A stretch of 32,000 bases of DNA from an uncultured Bacilli bacterium (GCA_947589105.1 CANQBL010000001.1:71146-103145); one strand, 5' to 3'; positions 3,120-28,696 are shown, counted from the stretch's first letter. The notes: generated by a model not told the origin, from the letters alone. Program-made: numbers and translations.

Positions 3120-3302
3120 TTATTTAATATAAATTTTTCTAACTTCTTTAATATTTTCGTTTTTATCTTTGCATCCTTTACAAGTAGTATTGCAAGATCC
3201 AACACCACCACCACATGCACAACTACTACATACTGAGGCATAAATTTCTGTTAGATTGCTTAAGATTTTACTTTTTGCCTCATTTTTATCAAAAAATTTC
3301 AT
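3120..3302 (-). CDS. 60-aa six-cysteine peptide, candidate RiPP precursor
   Basis: Sequence MKFFDKNEAKSKILSNLTEIYASVCSSCACGGGVGSCNTTCKGCKDKNENIKEVRKIYIK. A strong SD AGGAGGTG (3315-3308) sits 5 nt before the ATG. The ATG (3302-3300) overlaps the TGA (3301-3299) of the radical-SAM gene in an ATGA junction. Confidence 0.65.
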   Translation of the reverse strand: MKFFDKNEAKSKILSNLTEIYASVCSSCACGGGVGSCNTTCKGCKDKNENIKEVRKIYIK

Positions 3303-4645: not shown

Positions 4646-5105
4646 AATCACCCAATTTTTCTTCCATAATGATTTTACTCATCTTAAAGCCCATTTTCTC
4701 ATAAAGTTTAATCGCCTTTAAGTTATCTTTACATACCTTTAATTCTAAGTAACTTAACTTTTTATCTTCTGCCCACTTTTTAAAGCCATCTATAAGAGAT
4801 TGAGCAATACCATTATTTCTAAATTCTTCTTCCACATACAAAGCATCTAATACCCCTACTTTTTTTAGTTTAGAATCGCCATTATTTTGTATGTATCCAT
4901 AAATATAGCCTACTAACTTTTTACTTTTTTTTGCAATTAAAAGACATACGTCTTCATTATCAAAAAAATTTTCATAAAGAGATTTTACAATACAGTTTTC
5001 ATTTATGTTCTCATCGTATTTTTTCTCATCAACAATTAATTTCGTTAATAAACCATTTACCGCTAAAGCTGATTTATAATCTGCCTTAATTATATCTATG
5101 TTCAT
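4629..5105 (-). CDS. GNAT-family N-acetyltransferase
   Basis: LYVEEEFRNNGIAQSLI matches the acetyl-CoA-binding motif (R/Q-x-x-G-x-G/A). The likely start is ATG 5105, with a GGAGG SD (5115-5111) 5 nt upstream; the track ORF extends to 5156. Confidence 0.75.
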   Translation of the reverse strand: MNIDIIKADYKSALAVNGLLTKLIVDEKKYDENINENCIVKSLYENFFDNEDVCLLIAKKSKKLVGYIYGYIQNNGDSKLKKVGVLDALYVEEEFRNNGIAQSLIDGFKKWAEDKKLSYLELKVCKDNLKAIKLYEKMGFKMSKIIMEEKLGDYDDVI

Positions 5106-5186
5106 ATTTACCTCCTCACTCAAATTATATATTTTGATTAGTGAAATATTTGTCACTTATTATCATACAAAAATAGATATATCAAT

Positions 5187-5606
5187 CTACGTCTCAGATG
5201 TTTCTTCTACTCCTAAACAATAAGCAAATCTTATAAGTGTTTCTTTTTTCTTAATATAGTAATAACCTAAAGAAAATCCAAGATTGTTAGCTATAAATCT
5301 ATCATCATAATTATCTTCTTTATCAAGGTATGTCCAATATATGATTTTTCTTTCCTCAGTAGTTAATCTGTTAAAGGAGGATCTTACATAATTAATGAAA
5401 ACAATTCTATTTTTTAGCTCACAATCATCTTTTTGAAAATAAATATTATTATTTTGAGAAGAATTTAATTGTTCTAATAAAAAATCATTATTTACCTTTG
5501 AAGCAGACTCATTATCAACCGATAAATTGTAATAAATATATTTATTTATTAATTCTTTTACATTTTGTTTGGTCTTTGGCCAATTAACATTTATTGTTTT
5601 CATCAT
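5187..5606 (-). CDS. small ArpU-family / sigma-70 region-4-like transcriptional regulator (tentative)
   Basis: 139 aa. The C-terminal LTTEERKIIYWTYL...FIANNLGFSLGYYYIKKKETLIRFAYCLG resembles the HTH of phage-type ArpU late regulators. An AAGGGAGA SD precedes the ATG. It is the first gene of the same-strand cluster. Confidence 0.4.
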   Translation of the reverse strand: MMKTINVNWPKTKQNVKELINKYIYYNLSVDNESASKVNNDFLLEQLNSSQNNNIYFQKDDCELKNRIVFINYVRSSFNRLTTEERKIIYWTYLDKEDNYDDRFIANNLGFSLGYYYIKKKETLIRFAYCLGVEETSET

Positions 5607-15460: not shown

Positions 15461-16544
15461 TTAGTTTACCTTTCTTAGATAATTATATATAAATTCATCA
15501 ATATCACCGTCAAGTACCTTACTAACATTTGATGTTTCATAATTTGTTCTATGATCTTTTACCATTGAATAAGGATGCATTACATAACTTCTTATTTGCG
15601 ATCCAAACTCTATACCAGAATTATTTGCTTTTTGCTTACTTATTAATTCTTTTTGCTTTTTTTGCTCTATTTCATATAATTTACTTTTTAGTACCTTTAG
15701 CGCTGTTTCTTTATTTTTAATCTGACTTCTTCCATTTTGACATGTAACTACTATTCCTGTTTTTATATGAGTTATTCTAACTGCACTATCTGTAGTATTT
15801 ACACCCTGACCCCCCGGTCCACTACTTCTATATACATCTACTTTTATATCAGAATCTTTTAACTCTATATCTATATTATCATCAAATTCTGGAATAACAT
15901 CTACTGCTGCAAAAGAAGTATGTCTACGATTATTAGAATCAAAAGGTGATAATCTTACTAAGCGATGTACCCCTTTTTCACTTTTTAAATACCCATAAGC
16001 ATAATTTCCTTTTACTATACATGTAACACTTTTTATTCCAGCATCTTCACCTATTTGTTCATCTACAATTTCATATTTAAAATTCTTTTTATTAAAGTAT
16101 TTTAAATACATTCTAAGTAGCATCTGAGCCCAATCTTGACTTTCGGTCCCCCCTGCACCTGCATGAATCTCAAAAATGGCATCTTTAGAATCGTATTCTT
16201 TGCCTAAGAAAATTGTTACCTCATGATCTTTTATGGCTTTTATTGATTCGTTATAAATCAATTCACACTCTTCTAATTCTTTTTCGGTAAGTTTTGATAA
16301 ATCATACATATTTAGTAAATCTATATTTTCTTTTATTTTTAGAACAGGTTCTATAATTTCTTTTAAAAGATTCATTTGTTTTATAGTTTTTTCTGCCCTC
16401 TTAGTATCATTCCAAAATGAAGGACTATCATACTCTTTTTCTAATAACTTTATTTGACTAATTTTTTTATCTAAGTCAAAGAGCCCTCCACATATTATCT
16501 AATAACTCATTTAAAAGTTCTACATCTTTACGTGTTATTTCCAT
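15461..16544 (-). CDS. prfB: peptide chain release factor 2, requiring a programmed +1 frameshift
   Basis: Frame 0 from ATG 16544 reads MEITRKDVELLNELLDNMWRAL and then TGA (16478-16476). The +1 frame continues DLDKKISQIKLLEKEYDSPSFWND... into the track ORF 15461..16375, which carries SPF and GGQ (SGPGGQGVNTTDSAVR). Confidence 0.93.
16475..16489 (-). promoter_or_regulatory. prfB autoregulatory +1 frameshift site
   Basis: Minus strand reads GGAGGG CTC TTT GAC. This is an SD-like GGAGGG 3 nt upstream of the slippery CUU UGA C, the classic RF2 recoding signal. Confidence 0.9.
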
Positions 16545-16561
16545 ATAATCACCTATTTAAA

Positions 16562-16570
16562 ATTATAGCA
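16562..16570 (-). promoter_or_regulatory. candidate extended -10 (TGCTATAAT) giving prfB its own promoter
   Basis: Minus strand reads TGCTATAAT about 18 nt upstream of the prfB ATG, followed by an AGGTGA SD. Confidence 0.4.
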
Positions 16571-16725
16571 TAATTTTATAATTAAATAAATGGAAGTATG
16601 CTAAAAAAATATTGGAATTATTTTCCTTTATTTTAAATAATTCAAATAACATAAATAGTTTATTATATATAACAATAATAGTAGCAACTGATAAACCCAA
16701 AAAATAGATTATCAACTATAAAAAT

Positions 16726-16747
16726 AAAGTTCCTGAGTAGGAACTTT
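16726..16747. terminator. bidirectional hairpin terminator downstream of the C39-like gene
   Basis: AAAGTTCC-TGAGTA-GGAACTTT (8-bp stem) with T-rich runs on both strands. Confidence 0.45.
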
Positions 16748-16968
16748 TTATTTGTATTAAAACTATATTTTTAAATATAATTGTTCTTTTGCCTATCATA
16801 ATATTTTTATGACAAGAATTTAAAAATTTTATTTTAAAGTACTTATATTTGAAATATCCAAATAACTATTCTATTAAAACTGTTTTAATATGATTAAAAA
16901 ATTTAATTTTTACATATATAATTTTTAATTTCAAAATAAGAAAAAAAGAGGAAGATCTACAACACTAT

Positions 16969-17574
16969 TTAATTTACTTTTTTTATAAATAAAAAATTAA
17001 AAGATTCCTTTCTTCCATAAATTTCTCTAATTAAACTTTCATAGGAAAATGCAACGCCAATTTGATCATCACCTATTTTATTTGGATTAATAACATAAAA
17101 ATTATTGTTTTCATCTATATCACTAACTACTAGGTAATGACCATAATGGGAAAAAGTACCTTCATAGTTTTCATAATTATCTGCTGGTCCAACATGAATA
17201 ATAGCCATATTGCCATTTCTAATATTATCAATAATTCTCTTTTTTTGTTCTTCAGGATTATTAAAATTAATTTTTATTATCTCATATTCAATTTTTATTT
17301 TATCTTCTTTAATAAGTCTATCTAAGCAATATATTAAACCTTTAGAGCTTATACCTTTTGATTTTAAATAGATATTATCAAAATTTCCATTTTTATCAAC
17401 AATTATCTTTTTTACTATTTCAATGGGATTATACTTTATCCCATAATTTGAAAGTATAATAGCTATAGAAGTCGGTCCACAACCCCTATGCGGAATATCC
17501 CAATCTCCTAATTTATCCCTAAATTCATTTATAGTATAATCTAATTGCCTATACCTAATTCTATTTTGATTCAT
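16969..17574 (-). CDS. C39-like (papain-fold) cysteine peptidase domain protein, cytoplasmic
   Basis: 201 aa. HRGCGPTSIAIILSNYG matches the C39_2-type catalytic Cys motif, and GHYLVVSDID supplies the downstream His. There is no signal peptide or TM helix. An AGGAGA SD precedes the start. Confidence 0.5.
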   Translation of the reverse strand: MNQNRIRYRQLDYTINEFRDKLGDWDIPHRGCGPTSIAIILSNYGIKYNPIEIVKKIIVDKNGNFDNIYLKSKGISSKGLIYCLDRLIKEDKIKIEYEIIKINFNNPEEQKKRIIDNIRNGNMAIIHVGPADNYENYEGTFSHYGHYLVVSDIDENNNFYVINPNKIGDDQIGVAFSYESLIREIYGRKESFNFLFIKKVN

Positions 17575-17604
17575 TTTCTATCTCCTAAATAAAATTATGG
17601 AAAT

Positions 17605-17678
17605 ATGTTGAAAATATTTTTTTCGTAAAGTTTCATCATTTTCCAAAAAATGATGAAAAATGAGGAAATTTTCAACAT
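17605..17678. repeat. nested imperfect palindrome in a cassette spacer
   Basis: Outer 11-bp arms are ATGTTGAAAAT (17605-17615) and ATTTTCAACAT (17668-17678). Inner perfect 12-bp arms are TTTCATCATTTT (17631-17642) and AAAATGATGAAA (17647-17658), with a 4-nt loop. Word pair TGATGAA/TGAGGAA starts at 17651 and 17661. Confidence 0.8.
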
Positions 17679-17803
17679 TTGTTTACCAACTTTAATTTTT
17701 TTAATCTTATTCATATTTATGAACACAATACCTTATCAAAAATAAATATTATTTTGATAATCGTTTAAATCTTTCTTTTAATATTTCTCCTTCAGCCTAT
17801 ATT

Positions 17804-17813
17804 TTATAAAACC
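17804..17813 (-). repeat. TTATAAAACC core decamer, possibly a third and heavily degraded junction
   Basis: The same 10-mer follows the secA stop (22156-22165) and the SEC-C remnant at 20079-20088. Here the flanking tail-coding sequence is only weakly recognisable. Confidence 0.3.
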
Positions 17814-17920
17814 ATATAAATTATAAGCATTTCTAAAAGATTCTTAAATATGATTTTATATATTTTTTAATTATTGTTGAATATGTATCTTTATATAATT
17901 CTCGCATTTGTTATATAAAA

Positions 17921-18499
17921 TTACATATTTTCTTCTATGTCTTTTATAATATTATTTAAACTTTTAATTCTATCTTTAGAAGTATCATAATACTTAATTT
18001 TGTATTTAGGGCATTCTCTTTTTAGCATCTCGTTTGCAGAATACCAATCAATAGCATGTTTTTTTAAATATTTCTTAGAAAGACCAAAAGTCCAATCCTT
18101 TTCTGTATCGTGATTAATACAAAGTTCTACCATTTCATCAACATTTAGATTCCCTAATCCAAGACACACAACAATAGTCTCTTTTAAGTTTATCATCTTA
18201 CTAACTATTTTAGGATGTAATTGCCCACTTTCTAATATATATCCATAGTTTTTTTTATCTTTTTTAATAGAAGAGTCAAAAAATTCTAATAGAGTTCTTT
18301 GAAAAAACTCTCCGTGCTCAAACTCCTTTTGTTTTTCTACATTATTTCTGTAATATTCTTCTTTATTATTTGCTCTTATCATAGCCCATTTTAAAGAATC
18401 ACTGTGTATTAAGTTATAATTATTATATTTGTCTTTTAGCATTTCACTTAACGTTGTTTTTCCTGCTCTGCCTATTCCCATTATTAATATATTTTTCAT
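17921..18499 (-). CDS. P-loop NTPase / small-molecule or nucleotide kinase-like protein
   Basis: 192 aa with N-terminal Walker A GIGRAGKTT. Size and layout resemble the adenylate-kinase/AAA_18 fold. No closer assignment is possible. Confidence 0.5.
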   Translation of the reverse strand: MKNILIMGIGRAGKTTLSEMLKDKYNNYNLIHSDSLKWAMIRANNKEEYYRNNVEKQKEFEHGEFFQRTLLEFFDSSIKKDKKNYGYILESGQLHPKIVSKMINLKETIVVCLGLGNLNVDEMVELCINHDTEKDWTFGLSKKYLKKHAIDWYSANEMLKRECPKYKIKYYDTSKDRIKSLNNIIKDIEENM

Positions 18500-18597
18500 A
18501 ATTATCTTACCCTTCTATTTATTTTGACACAAATTTATAAAACTTTCAAAAATACAATTCCTATTATTACTTTCTTTAGTTTTTATCTCCAATTCTT

Positions 18598-19806
18598 TTA
18601 AACAGATTTATATAATCTAATACTTATTATTATTTCTATAATTGATAATACAAATAATATTACTACTACAGTAATCATTGGATTATTTAATAAAATAATT
18701 GTAAAACCTAAGCTCATTGTTGCTCTTACAATTTTTCTTGATAATTCCATTGTTGTCAATAAAGATTGTTGTCCTTCTTTTCCGACATTTCTTAACGCTA
18801 AATCTTGCATATATACTTTAAATGGATCTCTAATAAATAATATAATTATATACCCAAAACTCATAATACTAAATTTTAGTATTATAGAGTTTCTAATAAA
18901 ATATCCTAATATCATAAATATAATAGATGCACAAAGCAATGCCGGTAAAATAACCCCGACCTTTTCCTTATATTTATTGTGTATTTTATTAAAAGCTATA
19001 TTAGAAATAACTCTTACAATTCGAGAAATAGATAATATACCACCAATTACTAAAGCGGTTTTTTCTACGTTAAAGTTTAAAAGCAATTCCTGTTGTATAA
19101 ATAATTTTCCATTAAATTGGCCAGAATTTACAATAGGATAAAATAGACCATAAGAAATGATTAATAATATTATTAATCTATTATATCTTATCTTTTTACT
19201 TGTTTTAAGTTTTATTTCTTCTATTTTAATTTTGTCATAATTAGAAAAATCAATTATATAAAATGACAATATAAAACATATTAAACAAAAGGCAATACAA
19301 CACAACATTGGTAAATAATTATTAAAATTAAACATTATACTTACAATAAATGATATAATCATTGTTACTGTTGCATATATAGTATTAGATTTTGTTTTTA
19401 TTTTTATATATTCATTATTTCTATTTTGCAATTCAAGATTATTTTTTAATATAGCATTTGACATATTTTGAAATGTAAGTGCAATTTCATAAATAATCTT
19501 TCCCAAAGCAATAACTAGATAGTTTTGGCCAAATGTTAATAATATACTTGATATTAATAATGTTAAAGAACCTAACCTAACTGATTTTGTATTTCCTATT
19601 TTTTTAATTATTTTTAATAGTGGAACTTGCAATAATATACAAGCTATTAATGAAACAGTAGTCAAAGAAACTATCTGTGATGAATTAAAATTTTTTACAA
19701 CAGTTAAAAACAATGTATCTATTGCTACCCAAAATAATAAATCACTCGATAAACCTGTATATAGAGGAAATATTTTATTAAACTTCTTCATTCCATCTTG
19801 CTTCAT
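18598..19806 (-). CDS. MFS-type transporter
   Basis: 402 aa with about 12 predicted TM helices in two halves. It lies 98 nt upstream of the P-loop gene with no intervening hairpin, so the two are probably an operon. Confidence 0.7.
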   Translation of the reverse strand: MKQDGMKKFNKIFPLYTGLSSDLLFWVAIDTLFLTVVKNFNSSQIVSLTTVSLIACILLQVPLLKIIKKIGNTKSVRLGSLTLLISSILLTFGQNYLVIALGKIIYEIALTFQNMSNAILKNNLELQNRNNEYIKIKTKSNTIYATVTMIISFIVSIMFNFNNYLPMLCCIAFCLICFILSFYIIDFSNYDKIKIEEIKLKTSKKIRYNRLIILLIISYGLFYPIVNSGQFNGKLFIQQELLLNFNVEKTALVIGGILSISRIVRVISNIAFNKIHNKYKEKVGVILPALLCASIIFMILGYFIRNSIILKFSIMSFGYIIILFIRDPFKVYMQDLALRNVGKEGQQSLLTTMELSRKIVRATMSLGFTIILLNNPMITVVVILFVLSIIEIIISIRLYKSV

Positions 19807-19967
19807 TTATTTTTATCTTCCTTACTTTTTTTCTTATTTTTTTAAATTCATTGCTTTATCTATTATTACCCTTCTTGTTCTTTATTTTTTTAGCATTGTT
19901 TATAATTTTAATTGCTTTAATTGTATCTTCAAATGTTATTTCTTGAAAATATAGTTAATGGAACATC

Positions 19968-20003
19968 AGTATGTATAGTATTATAGGTATTATCCGTATT
20001 ATC
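19968..20003 (-). repeat. degenerate 9-bp tandem repeat block (GATAATACS / TATAATACT type)
   Basis: Minus strand reads GATAATACGGATAATACCTATAATACTATACATACT. It is related to the ATAAATACY blocks at 20147-20183, 20954-20996 and 21022-21050. Confidence 0.6.
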
Positions 20004-20010
20004 TTTATTT

Positions 20011-20061
20011 CCAAAATGAGGAAAAAAGAGGAAAAATTTAGACTTTTATGTCCCCTTTTTT
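20011..20061. repeat. phased A-tract word repeat and imperfect palindrome in a cassette spacer
   Basis: TGAGGAAAAA (20017) and AGAGGAAAAA (20027) are 10 bp apart. AAAAAAGAGGAAAAA faces TTTTATGTCCCCTTTTTT as an imperfect inverted repeat. TTCCAAAATGAGGAAA resembles 17641-17667. Confidence 0.6.
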
Positions 20062-20089
20062 TAGAATTTGCAATCTCTTATAAAACCTG

Positions 20090-20199
20090 CTATTTACCAT
20101 AGCAATTTTTATACTTTTTACCACTGACACAAGTTGAGCCTACTCCAGTATTTATAGTATTTATGGTATTTGTATTATTATTGTTACTATAAATATTTT
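20090..20199 (-). repeat. junction module copy b: decayed SEC-C tail copy preceded by a 9-bp tandem block and AAAATATTTATAGTAA
   Basis: Minus strand translates ENIYSNNNNTNTINTINTGVGSTCVSGKKYKNCYGK then TAG (20092-20090). Of the 42 nt ending at the stop, 35 are identical to the secA tail (22167-22208). No start codon. Confidence 0.8.
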
Positions 20200-20215
20200 C
20201 TCATCTGCAAACAAT

Positions 20216-20689
20216 TTACAAACATTGTTTGCATCCGTTTACTAATTTAATTATATCATCTATCATTATATCAATATCATTTTCTAGGCATATTTTTGCT
20301 TTTTCTAAAGAATTATAAGCATTGGTAAGTATAACTTTATCATATACTATGTTATATTTATTTAACCAATCAAATGTCATTTTATAAGGATCAGAATATT
20401 CGCCATTATCTCTACCACTTATAATATATATTTCATTTCCTTCTTCTTTTAATTTTCTTATATATTCTGGTGCATTTTCTAAAACATTAAGACTTTTAGC
20501 AATTCTTTCAATATTATCATGATAATATTGCTGTTCTTCATCTTTTGGCCAGTTGAACATATCTCTTATATAAACATTATTTTTGATTATACCATTATTT
20601 CCTAATTCTTTATCATGATTAATATAATCATTTAATAATACTTCATTAAAATTTGATAAAACATTATCAATATCAATACCTATACGCAT
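20216..20689 (-). CDS. HAD-superfamily 5'(3')-deoxyribonucleotidase-like protein, C-terminus apparently replaced
   Basis: HAD motif I is DIDNVL, followed by ISGR and motif IV MIDD. The ORF ends only 12 codons after motif IV, inside the TGCAAAC word repeat. An AGAGGTGAG SD precedes the start. Confidence 0.6.
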   Translation of the reverse strand: MRIGIDIDNVLSNFNEVLLNDYINHDKELGNNGIIKNNVYIRDMFNWPKDEEQQYYHDNIERIAKSLNVLENAPEYIRKLKEEGNEIYIISGRDNGEYSDPYKMTFDWLNKYNIVYDKVILTNAYNSLEKAKICLENDIDIMIDDIIKLVNGCKQCL

Positions 20690-20726
20690 ATCTCACCTCT
20701 TTAGAAATATTAAGATATTTAAATAA

Positions 20727-20814
20727 AAATGTTTGCATTAGAATATTCCTTAATTTATAAGGTATTATTCTCATTTTTGCAAACATTTAACTTTTTTGCA
20801 AACAAATTGCAAAC
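20727..20814. repeat. imperfect palindrome plus phased TGCAAAC word repeats in a cassette spacer
   Basis: Perfect 11-bp arms are AAATGTTTGCA (20727-20737) and TGCAAACATTT (20778-20788), with inner arms GAATATTCCTTA / TAAGGTATTATTC around TTATAA. TGCAAAC also starts at 20797 and 20808. Confidence 0.8.
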
Positions 20815-20896
20815 AAAATGCATTATTTTTCAACTTTTATAGTAATTCTTACTTCTTGTATTGTCTTTTGAATCCTTTATTTATAAGGGATAGATG

Positions 20897-21067
20897 TTAT
20901 TTACCACAACAGTTCTTGTATTTCTTACCACTTCCACAAGTTCCCCACTTTTGAGTATATATAGTATTTATAGTATTACCATTATTATCGGTATTTCAAG
21001 GAATTTTAGGTCTGGTAACAAATAGTATTTATGGTATTTATAGTATTATGTTTACTATAAATATTTT
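20897..21067 (-). repeat. junction module copy a: SEC-C tail copy preceded by two 9-bp tandem blocks and AAAATATTTATAGTAA
   Basis: Minus strand translates NTDNNGNTINTIYTQKWGTCGSGKKYKNCCGK then TAA (20899-20897). Of the last 42 nt, 33 are identical to the secA tail, and all 9 differences fall at third codon positions. No start codon; a frame break separates the two tandem blocks. Confidence 0.85.
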
Positions 21068-21200
21068 ATAAAATGGGAACAAATTGGGAACATTGTTATC
21101 ATTCGCCTATAAGTATATTTTAGCACAAATAATTAGTTAATAACAACTTTTTTATTTAGCTTATTACACAATTGTAGTTTTGTATTATAAAGTAGTTAAT

Positions 21201-21803
21201 TTAAAATTTTTTTTCGTATATAAATGCTAGTTCTTTATTAACTTTTCCTAATTTTCCATATTCTTTATTTTCAATAATAGTTTGATAAACCTTTTTGCAT
21301 CCAACGCTTTCATATACTCCATAACTACATGATTCATCAGTTAATATTTGAAGATTTTTCATATTGTCTTTTTTTGCTAAATCAAATACATCTAACAATA
21401 ATTTTTTGCCTATACCTCTTCCCCTATATTGTTTATCCAAAATCAACATTGATAATTCACCATCAAAATAATCTCTCATATTATCAGGAACATAATCATA
21501 ATTTTTTTCATATTCCTTTAAAGCATTAACATCTTTTATTTCTTTACTTTTATATAATAGCTTTTTAACAAAAGCATAAAATTTTTTCTTTAATATATGC
21601 TTTTTTGAGTTCCATTTTGAATATCCTGCAAACCCCAACAATTTATTATTTTCCTTATAATAAACAAATTGTTCTGATTCTTCTAATATTTCTAATAGAT
21701 AAATCCATGCACATAATCTTCGACTGGCACCACTTTCAACTTCGCCTAAATCCCACTCATTTTCTAATAATTCTACTGCTCTCTTCATATCATTAAGTTT
21801 CAT
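21201..21803 (-). CDS. GNAT-family N-acetyltransferase
   Basis: ILDKQYRGRGIGKKLLLDVFDLAKK matches the acetyl-CoA motif. The likely start is ATG 21803 (MKLNDMKRAVELL) after a GGTGA SD; the track start at 21815 is TTG. Confidence 0.75.
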   Translation of the reverse strand: MKLNDMKRAVELLENEWDLGEVESGASRRLCAWIYLLEILEESEQFVYYKENNKLLGFAGYSKWNSKKHILKKKFYAFVKKLLYKSKEIKDVNALKEYEKNYDYVPDNMRDYFDGELSMLILDKQYRGRGIGKKLLLDVFDLAKKDNMKNLQILTDESCSYGVYESVGCKKVYQTIIENKEYGKLGKVNKELAFIYEKKF

Positions 21804-21969
21804 TTTTATCACCAATTTTAATATTTACTTTTTTAATATTATATCATGAAAAAACAATGCTATAAATTTTTTTGTTAAATTTTATTGTCTTTTATAACTT
21901 TATTTCTTATTTATACTTAATAAATCAAAAAACTTTACGGTAACACAAAAATATACTTAATTACATAAA

Positions 21970-21990
21970 AAATCAGCACAATGCTGATTT
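21970..21990 (-). terminator. intrinsic terminator downstream of secA
   Basis: AAATCAGCA-CAA-TGCTGATTT, a 9-bp perfect stem, followed by a T-run on the minus strand. Confidence 0.65.
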
Positions 21991-22003
21991 ACAATGTTAT
22001 CAT

Positions 22004-22100
22004 AAAATGTTCCCATTGGGAAACCCTTGATTTTGCGGGGCTTTTTGGGCATTTTTGGGAACAAAATGAATTTTTTGTGCACATTTTGAGCACATTTTTA
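22004..22100. repeat. phased A/T-tract word repeats immediately 3' of secA
   Basis: Minus strand reads AAAATGTGCTC AAAATGTGCAC AAAAAATTCATTTTGTTCCC AAAAATGCCC AAAAAGCCCCGC AAAATCAAGGGTTTCCCAATGGGAAC. On the plus strand, T-tract starts at 22042, 22052, 22071, 22084 and 22095. GTTCCCA/TGGGAAC words start at 22009, 22017 and 22056. Confidence 0.75.
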
Positions 22101-22166
22101 TAGTTTTAGGGGTTTTCTTTATGATTTTTTCAAAACCAAATACCTCGTAAACCCTTATAAAACCTA

Positions 22167-24677
22167 CTACTTTCCACAACAATTTTTATACTTTTTCCCA
22201 CTTCCACATGGACATGGATCATTACGACCTATCTTTTTTTCTTTTTTAATAGTTCTATTTTTAGACACTTTTTCTAATCCAGTATTAGCATTTCCTTTAA
22301 CTTGTTTTACTTCAAGGTTTTGCCTTATTTCTGCCTTTAAAAGATACAAAGTTATATCTTTATTTATTTTATCAAGCATATTATCAAATAGTTCAAAGCC
22401 TTCTCTAATATAAGCCTGCAAAGGATCTTCATTTGCATACCCTCTTAAAGAAACACTTTCTCTTAAATGATCCATTGTATTTATATGCTCCATCCAATGA
22501 TTATCAATAACTCTAAGCGTTATTGCTTTTTCAAAATCATTTCTTATTTCTAAAGGAAGTTTATCTATTTTATTTTGATATTCTTTAATAGCTTTTTCCT
22601 CTATTAACTCAATTATTTCATTTGTTTCTTTATTTAAAATTTCAGATAATTTTAAATTTGAAGTCCTTAACAATTTTTCATTAACATATTCAACAATCTC
22701 ATTACATTCACTTTCTAATATTATACCATGTTCATTCATGTGATTATGTACAACACTAGAAATATGTTCCTTTATTGTATTTATAACCATTTCATGAATG
22801 TCATCATTATCCAATATTTCATTTCTTTTTGAATACATTATTTCACGATGTTTTCCCATTACATCATCATATTGAAGTAAATGTTTACGAGCATCAAAAT
22901 TATTACCTTCTACTCTTTTTTGGGCCGTTTCAACGGAATGAGTAATAGTTTTGCTCCTCATATTTCTTTGACTATCTAAACCAGCCATTTCTAAAATACT
23001 TTTAAATCTATCTGTTCCAAATCTAACCATTAAGTCATCTTCAAACGACACAAAAAATTGACTATATCCTGGATCCCCTTGTCGACCAGAACGACCTCTT
23101 AATTGGTTATCAATACGTCTTGATTCATGTCTTTCAGTTCCTATTACGCAAAGACCACCAAGTTCTTTAACTCCTTGTCCAAGTTTAATATCAGTACCAC
23201 GTCCTGCCATATTAGTTGCAATAGTAACAGCGCCTTTTTCTCCTGCATGAGCGATAATTTCAGCTTCTCTTGCATGGTTCTTGGCATTTAATGTTTCATG
23301 TTTAATATGAGCTTTTTTAAGTAAACTACTTATCAATTCGTTTGTTTCAATTGCTATAGTACCTACTAAAACGGGTTGTCCTTTTTCATGCCTTCTTTTT
23401 ATTTCTGCAACTATAGCTTTATATTTTTCTTCTTTTGTTGAGTAAATCAAATCAGCCTCATCTTGCCTAATTACCGGCTTATTAGTTGGAATTTCAATAA
23501 CAAACATATTATATATGCTTCTAAATTCTTCTTCTTCTGTTTTAGCTGTACCAGTCATACCAGATAATTTTTCATACATTCTAAAGTAATTTTGAAAAGT
23601 AATTGTAGCAAGAGTCTTTGTTTCTTCTTGTATCTCTACGTTCTCTTTAGCCTCTATAGCTTGATGTAATCCATCTGAAAAAGCTCTGCCAGGCATAAGC
23701 CTACCAGTAAATTGATCAACTATTATTATTTTACCTTCTTGTACAACATAATCAACATCATTATGCATAGTATAATTTGCCTTTAAAGCCTGATTTATGT
23801 GATGAACTAAAGCCGAATGTTCTATATCATAAAGATTATTAAGTCTAAAATAATGTTCTGCTTTTTCTGTTCCTTGATCAGTTAAGGTTATATCTCTTGT
23901 TTTTTCATCTATAATATAATCTTCATTTTCTTTTAAAGTTTTTACATATTTATCCGCATCTTTATAAAGATTTGCAGATTTCATTACTCCTCCAGAAATA
24001 ATTAAAGGGGTTCTTGCCTCATCTATCAATACCGAATCAACTTCATCTATTATTGCAAAATTAAGAGGTCTTTGTACTCTATCTTCTTTTCTTACTACCA
24101 TATTATCTCTTAAGTAATCAAATCCTAACTCATTATTGGTAGAATACAAAATATCAGCTTTATAAGCTTCTTGTTTTTCACTTGGAGACATCTCCCTTAA
24201 ATTAACCGCTACACTTAATCCTAAATAATTATAAATTTGTCCCATCCATTTAGCATCACGACTCGCTAAATATTCATTTACCGTTACTACATGAACTCCT
24301 TTACCTGTTAAAGCGTTTAAGTATGCTGGCATTACGCAAGTTAAAGTTTTACCTTCTCCAGTTTTCATTTCTGAAATATTACCAAAATGAATAGCTAAAG
24401 CACCCAAAACCTGAACATAAAACGGTTTTTCACCAATAACACGATATGCAGCTTCCCTTACTGTGGCAAAAGCATCTGGTATTATTTGATCTAAACTTTC
24501 TCCATCAGCTAATCGTTTTTTTAATTTTTCACTCATTGCCTGAAGAGTTTTATCAGACATTTTAGAATATTTATCTTCTAGTTCGAAAATTTCGTTTGCT
24601 ATTAATTTAAATTTTTCTAATTCCTTATATTCATGATCAAAAATCTTTTTTAACATTTTCAACATAATTTCAATCAT
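22167..24677 (-). CDS. secA: preprotein translocase ATPase SecA
   Basis: 836-aa ORF with the DEAD-like motor (MKTGEGKT, DEVDSVLIDEARTPLIIS) and a C-terminal SEC-C zinc motif CPCGSGKKYKNCCGK. The real start is probably ATG 24665 or 24656 (MLKKIFD), because the GGAG SD abuts the first ATG. Confidence 0.97.
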   Translation of the reverse strand: MIEIMLKMLKKIFDHEYKELEKFKLIANEIFELEDKYSKMSDKTLQAMSEKLKKRLADGESLDQIIPDAFATVREAAYRVIGEKPFYVQVLGALAIHFGNISEMKTGEGKTLTCVMPAYLNALTGKGVHVVTVNEYLASRDAKWMGQIYNYLGLSVAVNLREMSPSEKQEAYKADILYSTNNELGFDYLRDNMVVRKEDRVQRPLNFAIIDEVDSVLIDEARTPLIISGGVMKSANLYKDADKYVKTLKENEDYIIDEKTRDITLTDQGTEKAEHYFRLNNLYDIEHSALVHHINQALKANYTMHNDVDYVVQEGKIIIVDQFTGRLMPGRAFSDGLHQAIEAKENVEIQEETKTLATITFQNYFRMYEKLSGMTGTAKTEEEEFRSIYNMFVIEIPTNKPVIRQDEADLIYSTKEEKYKAIVAEIKRRHEKGQPVLVGTIAIETNELISSLLKKAHIKHETLNAKNHAREAEIIAHAGEKGAVTIATNMAGRGTDIKLGQGVKELGGLCVIGTERHESRRIDNQLRGRSGRQGDPGYSQFFVSFEDDLMVRFGTDRFKSILEMAGLDSQRNMRSKTITHSVETAQKRVEGNNFDARKHLLQYDDVMGKHREIMYSKRNEILDNDDIHEMVINTIKEHISSVVHNHMNEHGIILESECNEIVEYVNEKLLRTSNLKLSEILNKETNEIIELIEEKAIKEYQNKIDKLPLEIRNDFEKAITLRVIDNHWMEHINTMDHLRESVSLRGYANEDPLQAYIREGFELFDNMLDKINKDITLYLLKAEIRQNLEVKQVKGNANTGLEKVSKNRTIKKEKKIGRNDPCPCGSGKKYKNCCGK

Positions 24678-25871: not shown

Positions 25872-26483
25872 ATGAAAAAACGTTTTCTAAATTCAATTAG
25901 AAATTCTATTAAAAAGCAATACCCTAATTATTCAAAAGATAAAATTGATGAAATAATGTACGGTGTCGAAGGAATATACTTAATGATAACAAAAACTATA
26001 ATAATATTTTTATTAGCTTTTATATTAGGTATATTTAAAGAACTTTTATATTTACTTATTGCTTTTAATTTTATTAGGCTTTTTGCATTTGGTATGCATG
26101 CCAACAAAAGTATTATATGTCTTGTTTTTTCAACTTTATTATTTATAGGCGGTGCATTTTTATGTAAATATGTAACACTAAATAAATTAGTTTTATACAT
26201 ATTTTACTTATTAGCTTTTATAATTATTACTATTTTTTCTCCTGCAGATACGGTAAAAAGACCCCTAATAAATAAGAAAAAAAGAAATAAATTTAAATTT
26301 TTATCAATTATAACAACATTAATTTATTTTATATTAACTCTATTTATTAAAAACAACTTAATTATTAATAGTCTTATATTTGGTCTTATCATAGAATGCA
26401 TTTTAATATCACCTTTGACTTATAAAATTTTTAAAATGCCATATAAAAACTATGTTAATTATGGTTTAAACACTTTTAATTAA
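25872..26483 (+). CDS. agrB: AgrB-family autoinducing-peptide processing endopeptidase
   Basis: 203-aa polytopic membrane protein. FIRLFAFGMHANKSIIC has His and Cys spaced 7 residues apart, as in the S. aureus AgrB catalytic pair H77/C84. A basic loop KRPLINKKKRNK is also present. Confidence 0.85.
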   Translation: MKKRFLNSIRNSIKKQYPNYSKDKIDEIMYGVEGIYLMITKTIIIFLLAFILGIFKELLYLLIAFNFIRLFAFGMHANKSIICLVFSTLLFIGGAFLCKYVTLNKLVLYIFYLLAFIIITIFSPADTVKRPLINKKKRNKFKFLSIITTLIYFILTLFIKNNLIINSLIFGLIIECILISPLTYKIFKMPYKNYVNYGLNTFN

Positions 26484-26519
26484 GTGATTAAATAAATTTT
26501 AATAAGGAGGAATAATAAA

Positions 26520-26645
26520 ATGAAAGCAATGTTAATTTCTATTGTTTCAGCATTAGGAGCTTTAGTTGCAGCTTCTGCAACTAGCGGATGTGTTATAGTA
26601 TGGGTTGATGAACCAACAATGCCTAAAGCAATGTTAGAAAAGTAA
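26520..26645 (+). CDS. agrD: AgrD-type autoinducing-peptide precursor (41 aa; below the ORF-track size cut-off)
   Basis: An AAGGAGG SD (26504-26510) precedes the ATG at 26520. Translation is MKAMLISIVSALGALVAASATSGCVIVWVDEPTMPKAMLEK: an amphipathic leader, a single Cys, and the acidic DExxxPK tail typical of AgrD. It lies 36 nt after agrB. Confidence 0.8.
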   Translation: MKAMLISIVSALGALVAASATSGCVIVWVDEPTMPKAMLEK

Positions 26646-26672
26646 AAGAAAAAGCTTTTATTGCTTTTTCTT
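26646..26672. terminator. bidirectional terminator shared by agrBD and the convergent kinase gene
   Basis: AAGAAAAAGC-TTTTATT-GCTTTTTCTT (10-bp stem) with T-runs on both sides. It overlaps the last codons of the kinase ORF. Confidence 0.6.
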
Positions 26673-27962
26673 TTTTATTTGTATAATTAAATTTGTTATA
26701 AAATAATCGTTGTCCAACTTATTTTCTACGTTCAAGCATTCATTTTCATTTACTATGTCATTAACTAATCTCAGTCCATAACCATGTCCATTTCCTTTTG
26801 TTGAATGACCAGAACCTAATTTAGACATATCTATTTTTCCTTTATATGTATTTGAAATGCTAAAAATAACTTTAGAAGATTCTTTTATTGAAGAAATAGT
26901 AATTTTTTTATTTTTACTTTCTTTACTTGCATCAATTGCATTATCTAATAACACACCTAATATTTTAGTAATATTTTTATACATTATCGTATCTAAAGTC
27001 TTTAATTTTGTTTTTACTCCATATTCAACATTAATTTCATATTTGATATTTTCATCATCCATCATTGATAATTTATAATATAAAAGTCCTTTTATACCTC
27101 CATCAGGAAAATTATTAAGTTGGCTTATTAAATAACTACTATGTGTTTTTTTAGTATCATCTACGATTGAATCTAAATACTCAATTAGTTTAGGTGACTT
27201 CATTTGAGCATAACCACGAATAACCATCAACTGGTTTCTAAACTCATGATTTGCTTTTCCTTGATCCGTAATTATTTTTTCGTATTTAGTAACATAATTA
27301 AGCATCTGTTTATTTTGTTCATTTAACTTATCATATTTTGATTCATTTTTTATTATTACGGTTAATATTGCAACTATACCAATAATAAATAATATATTAA
27401 CATAATAATTTGATTTAAGTATTAATTCTAAACCATTTTTTGATACTATTAAATATACAACAAATATAAATATGTATAAATAATTTATTAATTTTGAATT
27501 TTTATCAAACATATTATTTATTTTATAAATAATCTTAATAAAAAAAGGAATATATATTAAACAAATAGATAATAGTGATATTAAAATATTTGCCAAAAGA
27601 TTATAAAGATTATTATTAACAATATCAACAGAATTAATTCCAAAAAGTACTAAAAATAAAGTTACTATTATTTCACTAATTGACATTATCATCTCTAAAT
27701 TGAAAGAATATAAAATTAATTTTTTATCCTTTATTTTTAAAAAGAAGTATATAATTAAAGAAGTTATTATTATAAATAAAATAAATCTAATTTGGTTTGG
27801 AATAAATAAAAAACATATCGAGCAATAAATACACATTGGAATTAGTAATTTTATTTTTTCTTTTAAAGCTTTAATTTGTATTTGTCTACAAATAATAATT
27901 GTCGCAGCCGTGCCCTGAAATAATGAAACTATTATACTTATAATTATTTTTTCTACACTCAT
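26658..27962 (-). CDS. AgrC/HPK10-type sensor histidine kinase
   Basis: 434 aa. The N-terminal sensor has about 6-7 TM helices. H-box HEFRNQLMVIRGY, N-box LLDNAIDA, G-box GHGYGL. The start overlaps the regulator stop (ATGA at 27962-27959). Confidence 0.85.
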   Translation of the reverse strand: MSVEKIIISIIVSLFQGTAATIIICRQIQIKALKEKIKLLIPMCIYCSICFLFIPNQIRFILFIIITSLIIYFFLKIKDKKLILYSFNLEMIMSISEIIVTLFLVLFGINSVDIVNNNLYNLLANILISLLSICLIYIPFFIKIIYKINNMFDKNSKLINYLYIFIFVVYLIVSKNGLELILKSNYYVNILFIIGIVAILTVIIKNESKYDKLNEQNKQMLNYVTKYEKIITDQGKANHEFRNQLMVIRGYAQMKSPKLIEYLDSIVDDTKKTHSSYLISQLNNFPDGGIKGLLYYKLSMMDDENIKYEINVEYGVKTKLKTLDTIMYKNITKILGVLLDNAIDASKESKNKKITISSIKESSKVIFSISNTYKGKIDMSKLGSGHSTKGNGHGYGLRLVNDIVNENECLNVENKLDNDYFITNLIIQIKKKKQ

Positions 27963-28669
27963 AAAATCTCCCTTAATTTCCTTTTATAATTTTTGGATAA
28001 ATAGTCTATACTTTTATCACAATTAAAATAAATTATACTATTTTTAAAATCAACACTTTCTATTTTATCAATATTAATATAACAAGCCCTATGTGTTTGA
28101 TGAAACCTAGAATCTAATTTTTTTATTATGTTTAATAAAGTGTCATTTACTGGATATTCATCTTCTTCGGTTACTATTGTTGTTTTATTACTTTCGCTAT
28201 CTTTATAAATATATAATATATTATCTAAATTTACGTGATGCAGTTCTTTATTACATCTAAAACTTAAAACTTTTTTTAATTCTATTTTGTTAATTACCAT
28301 TTTTAACGTATCAGATAATCTTTCTTCATAATTATCAAATTTTGAGATGAAATCAAATATTAAAAGTTTTTGTTTTAAAACATTAAGTTCTAATTCATCA
28401 TGAGAAGTTAATATGATTATTATACTATCCCAATCTACTTTTCTAATTTCTCTTGCTATTTCTATTCCGGTTTTGTTAGGTAACTCCAAATCCAAAATAT
28501 AAATTTTTATATCAAGAGGGGTGTTTATTATGTTTTTTAATTTAATGCTATATTTATCAAAAGAATGAATGTTATAGCTAAAATCATATGGCATAGCTAC
28601 TTTTTTAATAATAGCATTATTTAAATCAGTAACATATTTATTATCATCACAAAGTATAAAATTAATCAT
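27959..28669 (-). CDS. LytTR-family response regulator (AgrA-like)
   Basis: The receiver domain begins MINFILCDDN and is followed by a C-terminal LytTR domain (...FHQTHRACYINIDKIESVD). The likely start is ATG 28669 after a GGGTGA SD; the track start at 28681 is GTG. Confidence 0.88.
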   Translation of the reverse strand: MINFILCDDNKYVTDLNNAIIKKVAMPYDFSYNIHSFDKYSIKLKNIINTPLDIKIYILDLELPNKTGIEIAREIRKVDWDSIIIILTSHDELELNVLKQKLLIFDFISKFDNYEERLSDTLKMVINKIELKKVLSFRCNKELHHVNLDNILYIYKDSESNKTTIVTEEDEYPVNDTLLNIIKKLDSRFHQTHRACYINIDKIESVDFKNSIIYFNCDKSIDYLSKNYKRKLREIL

Positions 28670-28696
28670 ACTATCACCCACTTAATTATAACATAA

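Follow-up and report, generated by a model that had tools for sequence, protein, structure and literature searches.

The window, a 32,000-nt stretch of DNA from an uncultured Bacilli bacterium (GCA_947589105.1 CANQBL010000001.1:71146-103145), carries secA and prfB separated by 5.6 kb, and we confirmed the coordinates that the preliminary description had given for the secA stop (22167) and the prfB start (16544). All cargo genes that Pfam recognized in the gap lie on the minus strand, as does secA; the spacers measure 351, 511, 409, 98, 346 and 424 bp (Table 1). The NT5C gene is truncated: its 3' end continues into the sequence that we describe below as the P arm of unit 2, and its product shares 64% amino acid identity with the N-terminal third of a 475-aa NT5C-nucleoside-hydrolase fusion found in other secA arrays (loci L097-L100).

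Table 1. Features of the secA-prfB gap and its flanks, numbered from the first letter of the window
Feature	Position	Strand	Remarks
secA ORF	22167-24677	-	stop at 22167
attL-type core, last ~45 nt of secA and stop	22167-22214	-	CPCGSGKKYKNCCGK, stop; nhmmer core profile 47.4 bits; pattern match
Unit 1 P'-arm remnant	21965-22166	-	
Unit 1 P' words	22087-22094; 22076-22083; 22056-22063 and 22008-22015	-	TGTGCTCA; TGTGCACA; TGTTCCCA and inverted copy
Unit 1 P'-arm terminator hairpin	21970-21990	-	
GNAT acetyltransferase, unit 1 cargo	21201-21815	-	Pfam Acetyltransf_1, E = 2.8e-10
Unit 1 P arm	20943-21116	-	alignment; repeat families D1, D2, D4
Unit 1 P-arm words	21074-21081; 21085-21092	-	TGTTCCCA, then two 9-mer repeat blocks (ATAATACTN)
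Relic core 1, attR-type, displaced secA 3' end	20897-20942	-	ends in GTCGSGKKYKNCCGK, stop; nhmmer 46.7 bits; pattern mismatches 0
Unit 2 P' arm	20700-20896	-	
Unit 2 P' words	20808-20815; 20797-20804; 20778-20785; 20730-20737	-	TGTTTGCA; last copy inverted
NT5C/HAD 5'-nucleotidase, truncated, unit 2 cargo	20216-20689	-	Pfam NT5C profile positions 4-127 of 180
Unit 2 shortened P arm	20137-20233	-	TGTTTGCA inverted (20226-20233) and direct (20206-20213), then 9-mers
Relic core 2, attR-type, more decayed	20090-20136	-	ends in STCVSGKKYKNCYGK, stop; nhmmer 40.7 bits; pattern mismatches 1
Nearly empty unit	19968-20089	-	short P'-like stretch; TTCCTC words 20023-20033 and 20013-20023
Orphan core-proximal P-arm 9-mer block, core lost	19968-20003	-	matches P-arm 9-mer zone of L158, L122, L167, L001
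MFS transporter, distal-block cargo	18598-19806	-	Pfam MFS_1, E = 1.9e-10
P-loop/dNMP-kinase-like protein, distal-block cargo	17921-18499	-	weak Pfam AAA/DNMK matches
Tyrosine integrase gene fossil, second ('Int2') type, 97 nt	17799-17895	-	kinase-C39 spacer; stop codons and frame breaks
TTCCTC-type word	17657-17667	-	kinase-C39 spacer
C39-like cysteine peptidase, cargo	16969-17574	-	Pfam Peptidase_C39_2, E = 6.7e-12
TTCCTC-word module after C39	16917-16953	-	repeat D6 pairs it with 19997-20033
Terminator-like hairpin, end of array	16726-16747	-	
Tentative vestige of ancestral secA stop region	16603-16628	-	AAGGAAAATAATTCCAATA-T7; aligns with L092, L097; weak match
Ancestral secA-prfB intergenic DNA	16545-16602	-	extended -10 motif TGCTATAAT 16562-16570, RBS; conserved in L085, L092, L097
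prfB (RF2)	15461-16544	-	ATG at 16544; programmed +1 frameshift site CTTTGAC 16475-16481

No ORF of at least 90 aa anywhere in the window matched an integrase, transposase or relaxase family in Pfam; two such ORFs matched no Pfam family at all. Similarly, a tblastn search with the MobV protein of locus L160 returned nothing significant in the window. The earlier statement that the window lacks a recombinase thus holds for intact ORFs, but the kinase-C39 spacer contains a 97-nt fossil of a tyrosine integrase gene, with 72-85% nucleotide identity to Int2 genes (11 matches in nine other loci, E down to 3e-12); for example, the window reads SFRNAYNLYGFIKY where the L160 Int2 gene reads SFRDASNLYGFIKY. 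Integration, excision and transfer genes have therefore been lost except for this fossil, and we found neither an intact integrase beside an att site nor a relaxase match, as an autonomous IME or ICE would have.

At the prfB side, ~95 nt of upstream DNA, including TGNTATAAT (TGTTATACT in L085), is kept in relatives that carry different arrays. The promoter motif TGCTATAAT is present, but the proposal that prfB acquired it does not stand: because the region is conserved across different arrays, it is ancestral intergenic DNA and not a recent acquisition. A putative vestige of the ancestral secA end lies ~60 nt 5' of prfB, and its counterpart in L097 runs without a break into a SEC-C relic that nhmmer detects (E = 2.2e-8).

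Displaced copies of the secA 3' end divide the gap

A degenerate pattern of the secA 3' end matched three times in the window, compared with 0.00 matches expected from 100 shuffles, and all three matches were in direct orientation. Two of them are relics, copies of ~45 nt each of the SEC-C zinc-finger codons and stop, whose differences from secA fall largely at synonymous positions. In a control set of 80 species-representative secA loci (1.47 Mb), extra cores occurred only in L001, the closest relative; one of the L001 relics is not a gene end, because a stop codon directly precedes the motif. The attL and attR of a single element share only a (C/T)(A/T)TGTGG block and up to ~7 further nt, and the stretch of the secA core after TGTGG is probably element-derived. 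Consistent with this, in sister strains the nucleotides of the attL-type core vary synonymously according to the adjoining element: the final ~35 nt of secA change with the neighbour while the protein stays constant. The motif TTATAA, previously taken as a universal part of the core, follows only some core copies.

These att remains alter the division of the gap. The gene content and shared strand of the four cargo units described earlier were borne out, but they are not four equal cassettes: the att remains delimit two clean units, a third that is nearly empty and an eroded distal block. The P and P' arms of the secA core and of both relic cores have homologues among the arms of integrase-bearing elements. 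The cores of the distal block, from MFS to C39, are eroded, and there the unit boundaries are drawn only from words, orphan 9-mers and the integrase fossil.

The cores are flanked by arm-like sequences

The recurring modules that had been noted in the spacers are real and non-random, as judged from pattern matches against shuffles and from repeat families, and they are the remains of att sites; families D1-D4 and D6 account for the 9-mers and words. We found that the P arm of unit 1 shares 67-77% identity with the right ends of at least 12 elements at other loci. The P' arm of unit 2 shares ~68-69% identity over ~190-220 nt with the secA end and P' arm 5' of int in L088, L091, L102 and L103, and its shortened P arm, which could also be aligned, is 85.6% identical to that of L092. 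Arm homology spans species as well as elements. The terminator hairpin of the unit 1 P' arm occupies the position directly 5' of int in intact elements, and words similar to the TTCCTC type (TTTCCT/AGGAAA) adjoin Int2 modules in L160 and L181.

Repeated 8-mers were common to both arms within 14 of 18 units, as opposed to 22% of cross pairs, and the word type tracks an integrase N-terminal motif, a correlation confounded by phylogeny. These observations suggest that the unit-specific 8-mer words may be integrase arm-binding sites. The conserved 9-mer block was present on the P side only. A repeat and hairpin search detected no conserved inverted repeats at the unit boundaries other than the terminator hairpins.

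Related loci carry intact integrases at the secA end

The recombinase that the window lacks is present in relatives, where a tyrosine integrase lies directly downstream of secA, with intact copies in L084, L088, L160, L181 and others. The integrase domains at this site are Pfam Phage_integrase, Phage_int_SAM_3 and Arm-DNA-bind_4. In a metagenome scan restricted to Int1-type genes with at least 400 nt of upstream sequence (a set 56-100% identical), all 71 of 71 had a SEC-C core on the same strand, ending 163-273 nt upstream. Most Int1-type genes stand behind a full secA, and 13 of 80 Int1 loci contain two to four cores. The SecA proteins nearly identical to that of one Int1 host are named Clostridia or Clostridiaceae bacterium at NCBI.

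Complete elements, with the secA end on one side and a relic on the other, span 8.3-11.4 kb. The two that we annotated (~8.7 and 10.6 kb) encode Int, Xis (HTH_17), a second integrase, a MobV relaxase and cargo. Many elements have two tyrosine integrases: Int1 adjoins secA, and Int2, which lies inside the element, shares 40-48% identity with Int1. Genes in the secA-prfB gaps of these genomes include SMODS+SLATT, a ThsB-like TIR protein, type I RM, Dcm+HNH, ToxN, Fic and zeta-like genes. A contig listed as viral in IMG/VR, with tail, Erf, endolysin and SSB-like genes, carries a words-core-words arrangement beside int that looks like an intact attP; the closest integrase of an isolated phage is only 36% identical. 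Autonomous relatives that share this att specificity, whether IME-like, ICE-like or phage, are found at the secA end. We found no earlier report in the literature of the secA 3' end as an integration target.

Strains with identical SecA differ by whole units

The preliminary description had proposed aligning the interval across strains for presence or absence of cassettes with breakpoints at the SEC-C core, and such differences were found in sister lineages. The SecA protein P0118 is identical in 22 contigs of one of these, and the gap differs among the eight places listed for it, with five kinds of content; a tyrosine integrase comes first in three of these, and one of the three integrases is frameshifted. 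L085 and L086 share 98.4% identity from inside the relic core onward, while before the core one has a 1.3-kb and the other a 4.15-kb unit, so that the breakpoints fall exactly at the core. Among contigs of the window's own lineage (5-8, of which several come from the same studies), we found a single invariant array and no polymorphism, excision product or empty site; there the array looks like a fixed fossil without its own recombinase. Differences by whole units between identical-SecA strains, with breakpoints at the core, support the earlier proposal of tandem accretion of recombinase-less elements resembling CIMEs (cis-mobilisable elements).

Discussion

Comparison between loci demonstrated the att-like anatomy of the boundaries, showed that the integrase exists and is strictly linked to secA, and revealed a unit polymorphism that breaks at the core. 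The secA-prfB gap is very probably the fossil of an integration hotspot, in which decayed tyrosine-integrase elements were stacked at the last ~40 nt of secA. We propose that this end of the gene is where such elements recombine, be they IME-like, of a larger ICE-like form or temperate phages; their attP appears to consist of an own SEC-C coding end and stop codon flanked by arm sequences. From sequence sharing, we infer that the exact crossover is at or beside (C/T)(A/T)TGTGG, in the Cys-Gly codons. The host would then retain the first two zinc ligands (CxC) and the element would supply the remaining finger (SGKKYKxCC/H-GK and stop), while the old secA end would be left beyond the P arm, at the opposite end of the element, as a relic that no longer codes. 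Repeated rounds of integration, with integrase and transfer genes deleted afterwards, would leave a stack of at least four units: GNAT; truncated NT5C; an empty unit of ~120 bp; and an eroded block with MFS, the P-loop protein, the integrase fossil and C39. By the preservation of their att sites, the units beside secA look youngest and those beside prfB oldest, and insertion order presumably follows position. With a matching integrase in trans, the array may still be excisable.

This is a familiar kind of genomic island, because related gut bacteria and phages carry intact, integrase-bearing versions. Its nearest known counterpart is the accretion of CIMEs and ICESt1/ICESt3-type elements at the 3' end of fda in Streptococcus thermophilus (PMC5704250). 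The two systems share site-specific insertion, directed by a tyrosine integrase to the 3' end of a housekeeping gene, loss by decay of the genes for integration and transfer but not of the att sites, tandem accretion into att-flanked arrays, and related autonomous elements of the same site specificity. They differ in the target, here secA with its SEC-C zinc-finger codons, and in the hosts, which here are Candidatus Aphodocola-like uncultured Bacilli of the gut and, judging by one source name, Clostridia; moreover, cis-mobilisation of the secA array is putative. Streptococcal IMEs also lie in tandem with decayed elements, e.g., IME_Sag2603_tRNALys (PMC5704250). They resemble the two annotated intact secA relatives in carrying Int, Xis, a MobV relaxase and cargo, and in the tandem arrangement of related and unrelated elements at one att region. 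However, they use another integration gene, and many secA elements have Int1 and Int2, of which the window keeps only the 97-nt Int2 fossil.

Composite SCCmec/pseudo-SCC islands of staphylococci occupy the 3' end of rlmH (orfX) by means of large serine recombinases (Ccr), without arm-type sites. As at secA, successive elements are bounded by direct repeats with the 3' end of the target gene, some members lack a recombinase, and the target gene remains intact, its end restored by the element. We rejected an SCC-like island: there is no Ccr, and what relatives have at the secA site are tyrosine integrases, which contain an arm-binding domain (Arm-DNA-bind_4). The attP sites of lambda and Tn916 have a core between repeated arm motifs and are served by an integrase with an N-terminal arm-binding domain, and the secA elements share both properties. 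In contrast to those systems, the putative arm words here (TGTNNNCA or others) vary by element lineage and track integrase N-terminal strand residues, and the P side has an extra conserved 9-mer block.

The principal rival to accretion in place is assembly elsewhere, with the finished array arriving in a single step as a composite (CIME-CIME-...). Reports of whole-composite transfer of CIME-ICE tandems exist (review PMC5704250), every sampled contig of the lineage has the same array, and no close relative with a sub-set of the units was found. We nevertheless consider a one-step arrival unlikely: att preservation falls from secA to prfB (46.7 bits, 40.7 bits, then cores lost), which fits successive events, possibly in a donor, and unit-to-unit variation in word type (TGTTCCCA, TGTTTGCA, TTCCTC) implies that the parent elements were not the same. 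It would in any case alter the place of accretion and not the mechanism. A non-mobile origin, through local duplications of the secA 3' end or SEC-C pseudogenes with genes inserted by illegitimate recombination, would suit the shortness of the relics, and the SEC-C motif does occur in proteins other than SecA. It is nonetheless highly improbable, as similarity passes the stop codon into ~200-nt arms that integrase-bearing elements also have in other hosts, of which one apparently belongs to a different class. The stop codon right before the motif of one L001 relic, the strictness of the integrase-site linkage (71/71) and the lack of extra copies in the secA loci of 79 other species argue in the same direction.

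An integron-style array, suggested earlier, would have an integron integrase encoded elsewhere capture cassettes via attC. Small unidirectional cargo genes at one chromosomal site, repeated spacers between them and a window without recombinase do recall an integron. However, there is no intI, attI or Pc beside the array and no attC; the site-linked integrases of relatives score 60-66 bits against an integron-integrase cut-off of 265; and the boundaries are direct, same-strand copies of a gene 3' end with lambda-like arms instead of imperfect palindromes, so we reject this reading as next to impossible. The units are decayed autonomous elements and not promoterless cassettes, and spacers of 346-511 bp are longer than expected for attC sites. 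Hardly more credible is movement of the modules by a host-encoded recombinase, as for the Xer-dependent dif modules of Acinetobacter plasmids, even though it would explain the small, recombinase-less modules and the absence of a dedicated enzyme. The cores are secA-end copies, all in direct orientation on one strand, in contrast to the 11-6-11 dif-like site and the typically alternating orientation of dif modules and IMEX, and relatives have a dedicated integrase family at the site, which falls below the NCBIfam cut-offs for XerC, XerD and XerS.

Beyond the integration hotspot at this locus, a large integrase clade, of which we found no published description, may target the SEC-C end of secA, with chimeric zinc fingers, a recognition code, a cargo and defence hotspot and excisable relic arrays; we hold this wider view tentatively, leaning slightly against it. 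If true, phages, IME-like elements and a larger ICE-like form all belong to this clade, whose hosts are uncultured gut Bacilli and at least one bacterium with a Clostridia name, and every integration gives SecA a chimeric zinc finger to which host and element contribute two ligands each. The TGTNNNCA-variant words may then form, with a few residues of the integrase N-terminal beta-strand (the residue after RK and the RKRGxVY-x-Y-x-F motif), a recognition code that separates element lineages. The secA-prfB gap would be a main cargo and defence hotspot in these genomes, and relic arrays would stay excisable by a matching incoming integrase.

Gene content of the secA-prfB interval

The preliminary description had seen a gap between secA and prfB that holds small cargo genes and lacks a recombinase, and the gene content, the spacers and a family search of the ORFs bear this out. 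On the minus strand of the window (G+C ~26%), hpf and secA are followed by five small genes, prfB, a YitT-family gene, ftsE and ftsX; the gap spacers measure 351, 511, 409, 98, 346 and 424 bp. None of the ORFs of at least 90 aa in the whole 32-kb window matched an integrase, transposase or relaxase family. The DNA comes from a gut bacillus near Candidatus Aphodocola, the name attached to a SecA with 87% identity. The 836-aa SecA had no exact match because gene callers start secA four codons later; the 832-aa form, HPF and the C39-like peptidase gave matches. None of the five cargo proteins was matched by PADLOC, which leaves no ground for ascribing a defence role to them. We conclude that the five genes are mobile-element leftovers and should be annotated as such.

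Two other loci in the window deserve mention. An agr-type quorum-sensing locus, conserved across all sister lineages, lies upstream of cspA-hpf-secA, and a radical SAM/SPASM gene between uvrA and the lgt-side genes may mark a candidate peptide-modification cluster.

Features of the window and of comparison loci (L-numbers)
Feature	Position	Strand	Remark
secA	22167-24677	-	
SEC-C relic 1	20897-20942	-	copy of secA end
SEC-C relic 2	20090-20136	-	copy of secA end
Near-empty unit	19968-20089		after relic 2
Int2-type integrase fossil	17799-17895		kinase-C39 spacer
Gap cargo, secA to prfB		-	GNAT acetyltransferase; NT5C/HAD nucleotidase; MFS transporter; weak P-loop/dNMP-kinase-like; C39-like peptidase
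prfB	start 16544	-	frameshift site 16475-16481
agr-type locus	25872-28681		
AgrB	25872-26483	+	
AgrD-like peptide	26520-26645	+	41 aa, ...SGCVIVWVDEP...
GHKL histidine kinase	26658-27962	-	
LytTR response regulator	27959-28681	-	
Candidate peptide-modification cluster	3299-5606		
Radical SAM/SPASM	3299-4651		overlaps GNAT
GNAT	4629-5156		followed by 139-aa ORF, no Pfam match
Empty unit, L001	12497-12700		directly after secA
Int2 region, L160	13518-16848		
Int2 region, L181	13403-16652		
Integrase with frame change, L086	13665-14899		also in L089
Integrase with frame change, L092	13622-14895		

Attachment-site remains between secA and prfB

The last ~45 nt of secA, here called the SEC-C core, encode a SEC-C zinc finger (ending ...CPCGSGKKYKNCCGK and stop). 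Two further copies of this end, the relics, lie on the same strand in the gap; a degenerate secA-end pattern matched three times in the window, against 0.00 matches expected. The relics differ from secA largely by synonymous changes, and the similarity runs past the stop codon. Upstream of each relic is a conserved arm of ~100-200 nt, which begins with an inverted and direct pair of 8-mer "words" and continues with 9-mer repeats (ATAATACTN) in one or two blocks; a second arm, 3' of the relic, bears the same word. The word is TGTTCCCA at the GNAT unit, TGTTTGCA at the NT5C unit and of TTCCTC type around the MFS, P-loop and C39 genes. These recurring modules have the layout of the attL, attR and hybrid sites that result from integration into a gene 3' end.

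Individual pieces of the gap can be matched to elements elsewhere. The upstream (P) arm and relic 1 are 67-77% identical to the right ends of at least 12 elements, and the NT5C unit has a left arm with ~68-69% identity to the stretch of secA end and downstream (P') arm that precedes the integrase gene in L088-type elements. The secA array of another lineage encodes a 475-aa NT5C-nucleoside-hydrolase fusion; the window's NT5C is truncated and corresponds to the N-terminal third of this fusion (64% aa identity), with a P arm in place of its 3' end. After relic 2, a near-empty unit of ~120 bp retains words and orphan 9-mers and has no core. The 97-nt fossil of Int2, a second, internal type of tyrosine integrase, shows 72-85% nucleotide identity to Int2 genes in nine other loci (11 matches), with 12 of 14 residues matching in SFRNAYNLYGFIKY; it was the only match when the gap was searched by tblastn with Int1 (the integrase adjoining secA), Xis, MobV and HTH_36 proteins. 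Finally, AAGGAAAATAATTCCAATA-T7 is probably the ancestral secA end; it lies ~60 nt upstream of prfB and aligns with the tail of a SEC-C relic that can still be recognised in L097. From secA to prfB, core preservation runs from 46.7 bits to 40.7 bits and is then lost, which fits accretion with the newest unit next to secA. Terminator-like hairpins are also enriched (6 sites versus 0.7 expected).

Other readings of these repeats were considered. That the 9-mers and SEC-C relic form small-protein genes was rejected: the relics have no start codons, and in one relic of L001 a stop codon stands in frame immediately ahead of the motif. Neither the Rfam nor the tRNA scan of the region or the window gave a hit; thus, the site is not of the tRNA or tmRNA type. 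The proposal that prfB had acquired its own promoter did not hold, since relatives whose arrays are unrelated have retained the prfB leader, including TGNTATAAT (TGTTATACT in L085), and the motif is therefore ancestral. A promoter scan of this AT-rich DNA (70 sites versus 58 +/- 7 expected) was uninformative, and we base no claim on it.

Variation of the interval among relatives

The species found by a SecA scan of genome contigs were all distant (at most 70% identical), and only L001 was informative. This Hadza gut MAG, the nearest species-representative genome (SecA 69% identical), has the same architecture downstream of secA with other cargo. It also carries a ~200-bp "empty" unit with words, 9-mers and a degenerate core but no cargo, which resembles the near-empty unit of the window. 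In L003 (SecA 63% identical), the order is secA-def-amylase-x-prfB, with no relics. Among 80 species-representative secA loci examined as a control (1.47 Mb), extra cores occurred in L001 only and an Int1-type integrase in none.

Sister lineages were more revealing. One SecA protein, P0118, is identical in 22 contigs and 86% identical to the window's SecA, and at least five different kinds of content occupy the secA-prfB gap among the eight places listed for this lineage: an ICE-like element (436-aa tyrosine integrase, ParA/ParB, sortase/pilin genes, giant helicase); an IME-like element (427-aa integrase, relaxase fragment, beta-lactamase-family gene); a frameshifted integrase with SMODS+SLATT; CutA1 only; and an array of NUDIX, His_Phos, GNAT, deaminase, APH, zeta-like and ToxN genes. 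The preliminary description had proposed looking for the presence or absence of single cassettes among related strains and species, with breakpoints at the SEC-C core, and we found such polymorphism: L085 and L086 share 94% identity as far as the secA end and 98.4% identity again from a point inside the relic core (CATGTGG), and the unit between these stretches is 1.3 kb in one and 4.15 kb in the other. The final ~35 nt of secA vary synonymously with the neighbouring element in P0118 strains while the protein stays identical, which points to a replacement secA end supplied by the element. Two lineages with 90%-identical SecA carry still other arrays, again with relics. The array is invariant in 5-8 contigs of the window's own lineage. 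Two Logan short-read contigs of the window's species (L095, L096) start ~35 nt before relic core 2; repeated cores may break assemblies, and arrays of this kind could then be missed in MAGs.

The gap cargo of relatives (L084-L092, L097-L100, L160, L181) is rich in defence-type and toxin genes, namely SMODS+SLATT, ThsB-like TIR, type I RM, Dcm+HNH, ToxN, Fic and a zeta-like kinase. Nucleotide-metabolism genes also occur (NUDIX, putative ITPase-like, HD, deaminase, NT5C-nucleoside hydrolase).

An integrase family associated with the secA end

A profile built from four aligned sister-lineage integrases and used on metagenome contigs yielded 80 loci. All 71 Int1-type genes (56-100% identical) whose upstream sequence ran to 400 nt or more had a SEC-C core upstream on the same strand, and the core end lay 163-273 nt (median 236) from Int1. 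Most follow a full secA; over the best aligned segment, the product of this secA has 36-73% identity to the SecA of the window. One host (L146) has near-identical SecA proteins that NCBI names Clostridia or Clostridiaceae bacterium; in this abundant host these occur as 917-aa and 919-aa forms, which may reflect different element-supplied C-terminal ends.

Two to four cores were present in 13 of the 80 loci, and complete elements span 8.3-11.4 kb from secA end to relic. Two annotated elements (L160, L181) contain Int1, cargo, HTH, an HTH_17 excisionase, Int2, a MobV relaxase and further cargo; that of L160 is followed by prfB and a YitT-family gene. The attL and attR of one element have only (C/T)(A/T)TGTGG in common, plus up to ~7 further nt, which would place the crossover at the Cys-Gly codons. 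The CxC half of the zinc finger would then come from the host gene and the CC/H half from the element.

Assignment of the integrases as integron or Xer recombinases was rejected, as scores were below the NCBIfam cut-offs. Among INPHARED isolated phage genomes no relative exceeded 36% identity, the value of the nearest integrase, and IMG/VR viral contigs contain integrases 42-50% identical with a SEC-C core alongside. One of these, L182, carries tail, Erf, endolysin and SSB-like genes, and its words-core-words site adjoining int looks as an intact attP should.

Many elements (L160, L181 and at least 15 other loci) carry the second tyrosine integrase, 40-48% identical to Int1, which in L160 and L181 sits within an HTH-Xis-Int2-MobV relaxase module; such elements may be nested IMEs or two-integrase elements. 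Two divergent sister-subfamily integrases in L086 (also L089) and L092 show a -1 frame change at the same point, an A8 run (TTA AAA AAA ACA in L086, GTA AAA AAA ACG in L092), and a -1 slip restores a full-length integrase alignable with intact ones. Programmed slippage or a phase-variable switch, rather than decay, could account for the frame change.

The words, which include TGTTTGCA, TGTCCACA, TGTCGCCA and TGTGCACA, are probably arm-type integrase sites. Repeated 8-mers are common to both arms in 14 of 18 units, versus 22% of mismatched pairs. Across 73 integrase-bearing sites, the type of word varies with the N-terminal arm-binding motif of the integrase next to it, a correlation confounded by shared ancestry: TGTCCACA occurs with ...VYEYRFE...RKW, TGTTTGCA with ...YQYKFE...RKF and TGTCGCCA with ...VYEYNFD...RKR. 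In the P' arms of L102-L181, TGTNNNCA-form words co-vary with residues of this motif (RKRGxVY-[EQ]-Y-[RKQN]-F plus the residue after G-x-RK), which may represent a recognition code for arm-site specificity.

Discussion

Our results indicate that decayed elements targeting secA make up the secA-prfB interval as a CIME-like stack, which has no recombinase of its own. The stack matches a model in three steps (integration, decay, accretion) that has been described for ICEs and IMEs of streptococci (PMC5704250). The literature searched contained no description of secA as an integration site, an absence that is no proof of novelty.

For the window itself the message is modest, and the significance comes mainly from the wider integrase family revealed. 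These findings account for the separation of secA and prfB, usually a tight pair, in this clade of uncultured gut bacteria, and show that the process behind it is recurrent and site-specific, not a rearrangement. Related attP/integrase pairs with different arm words provide material for specificity tests, and extra SEC-C ends downstream of secA offer a simple marker in MAGs for islands, defence genes and prophages. The SecA zinc finger, a strongly conserved coding motif, serves here as an integration target, the role that tRNA genes play elsewhere.
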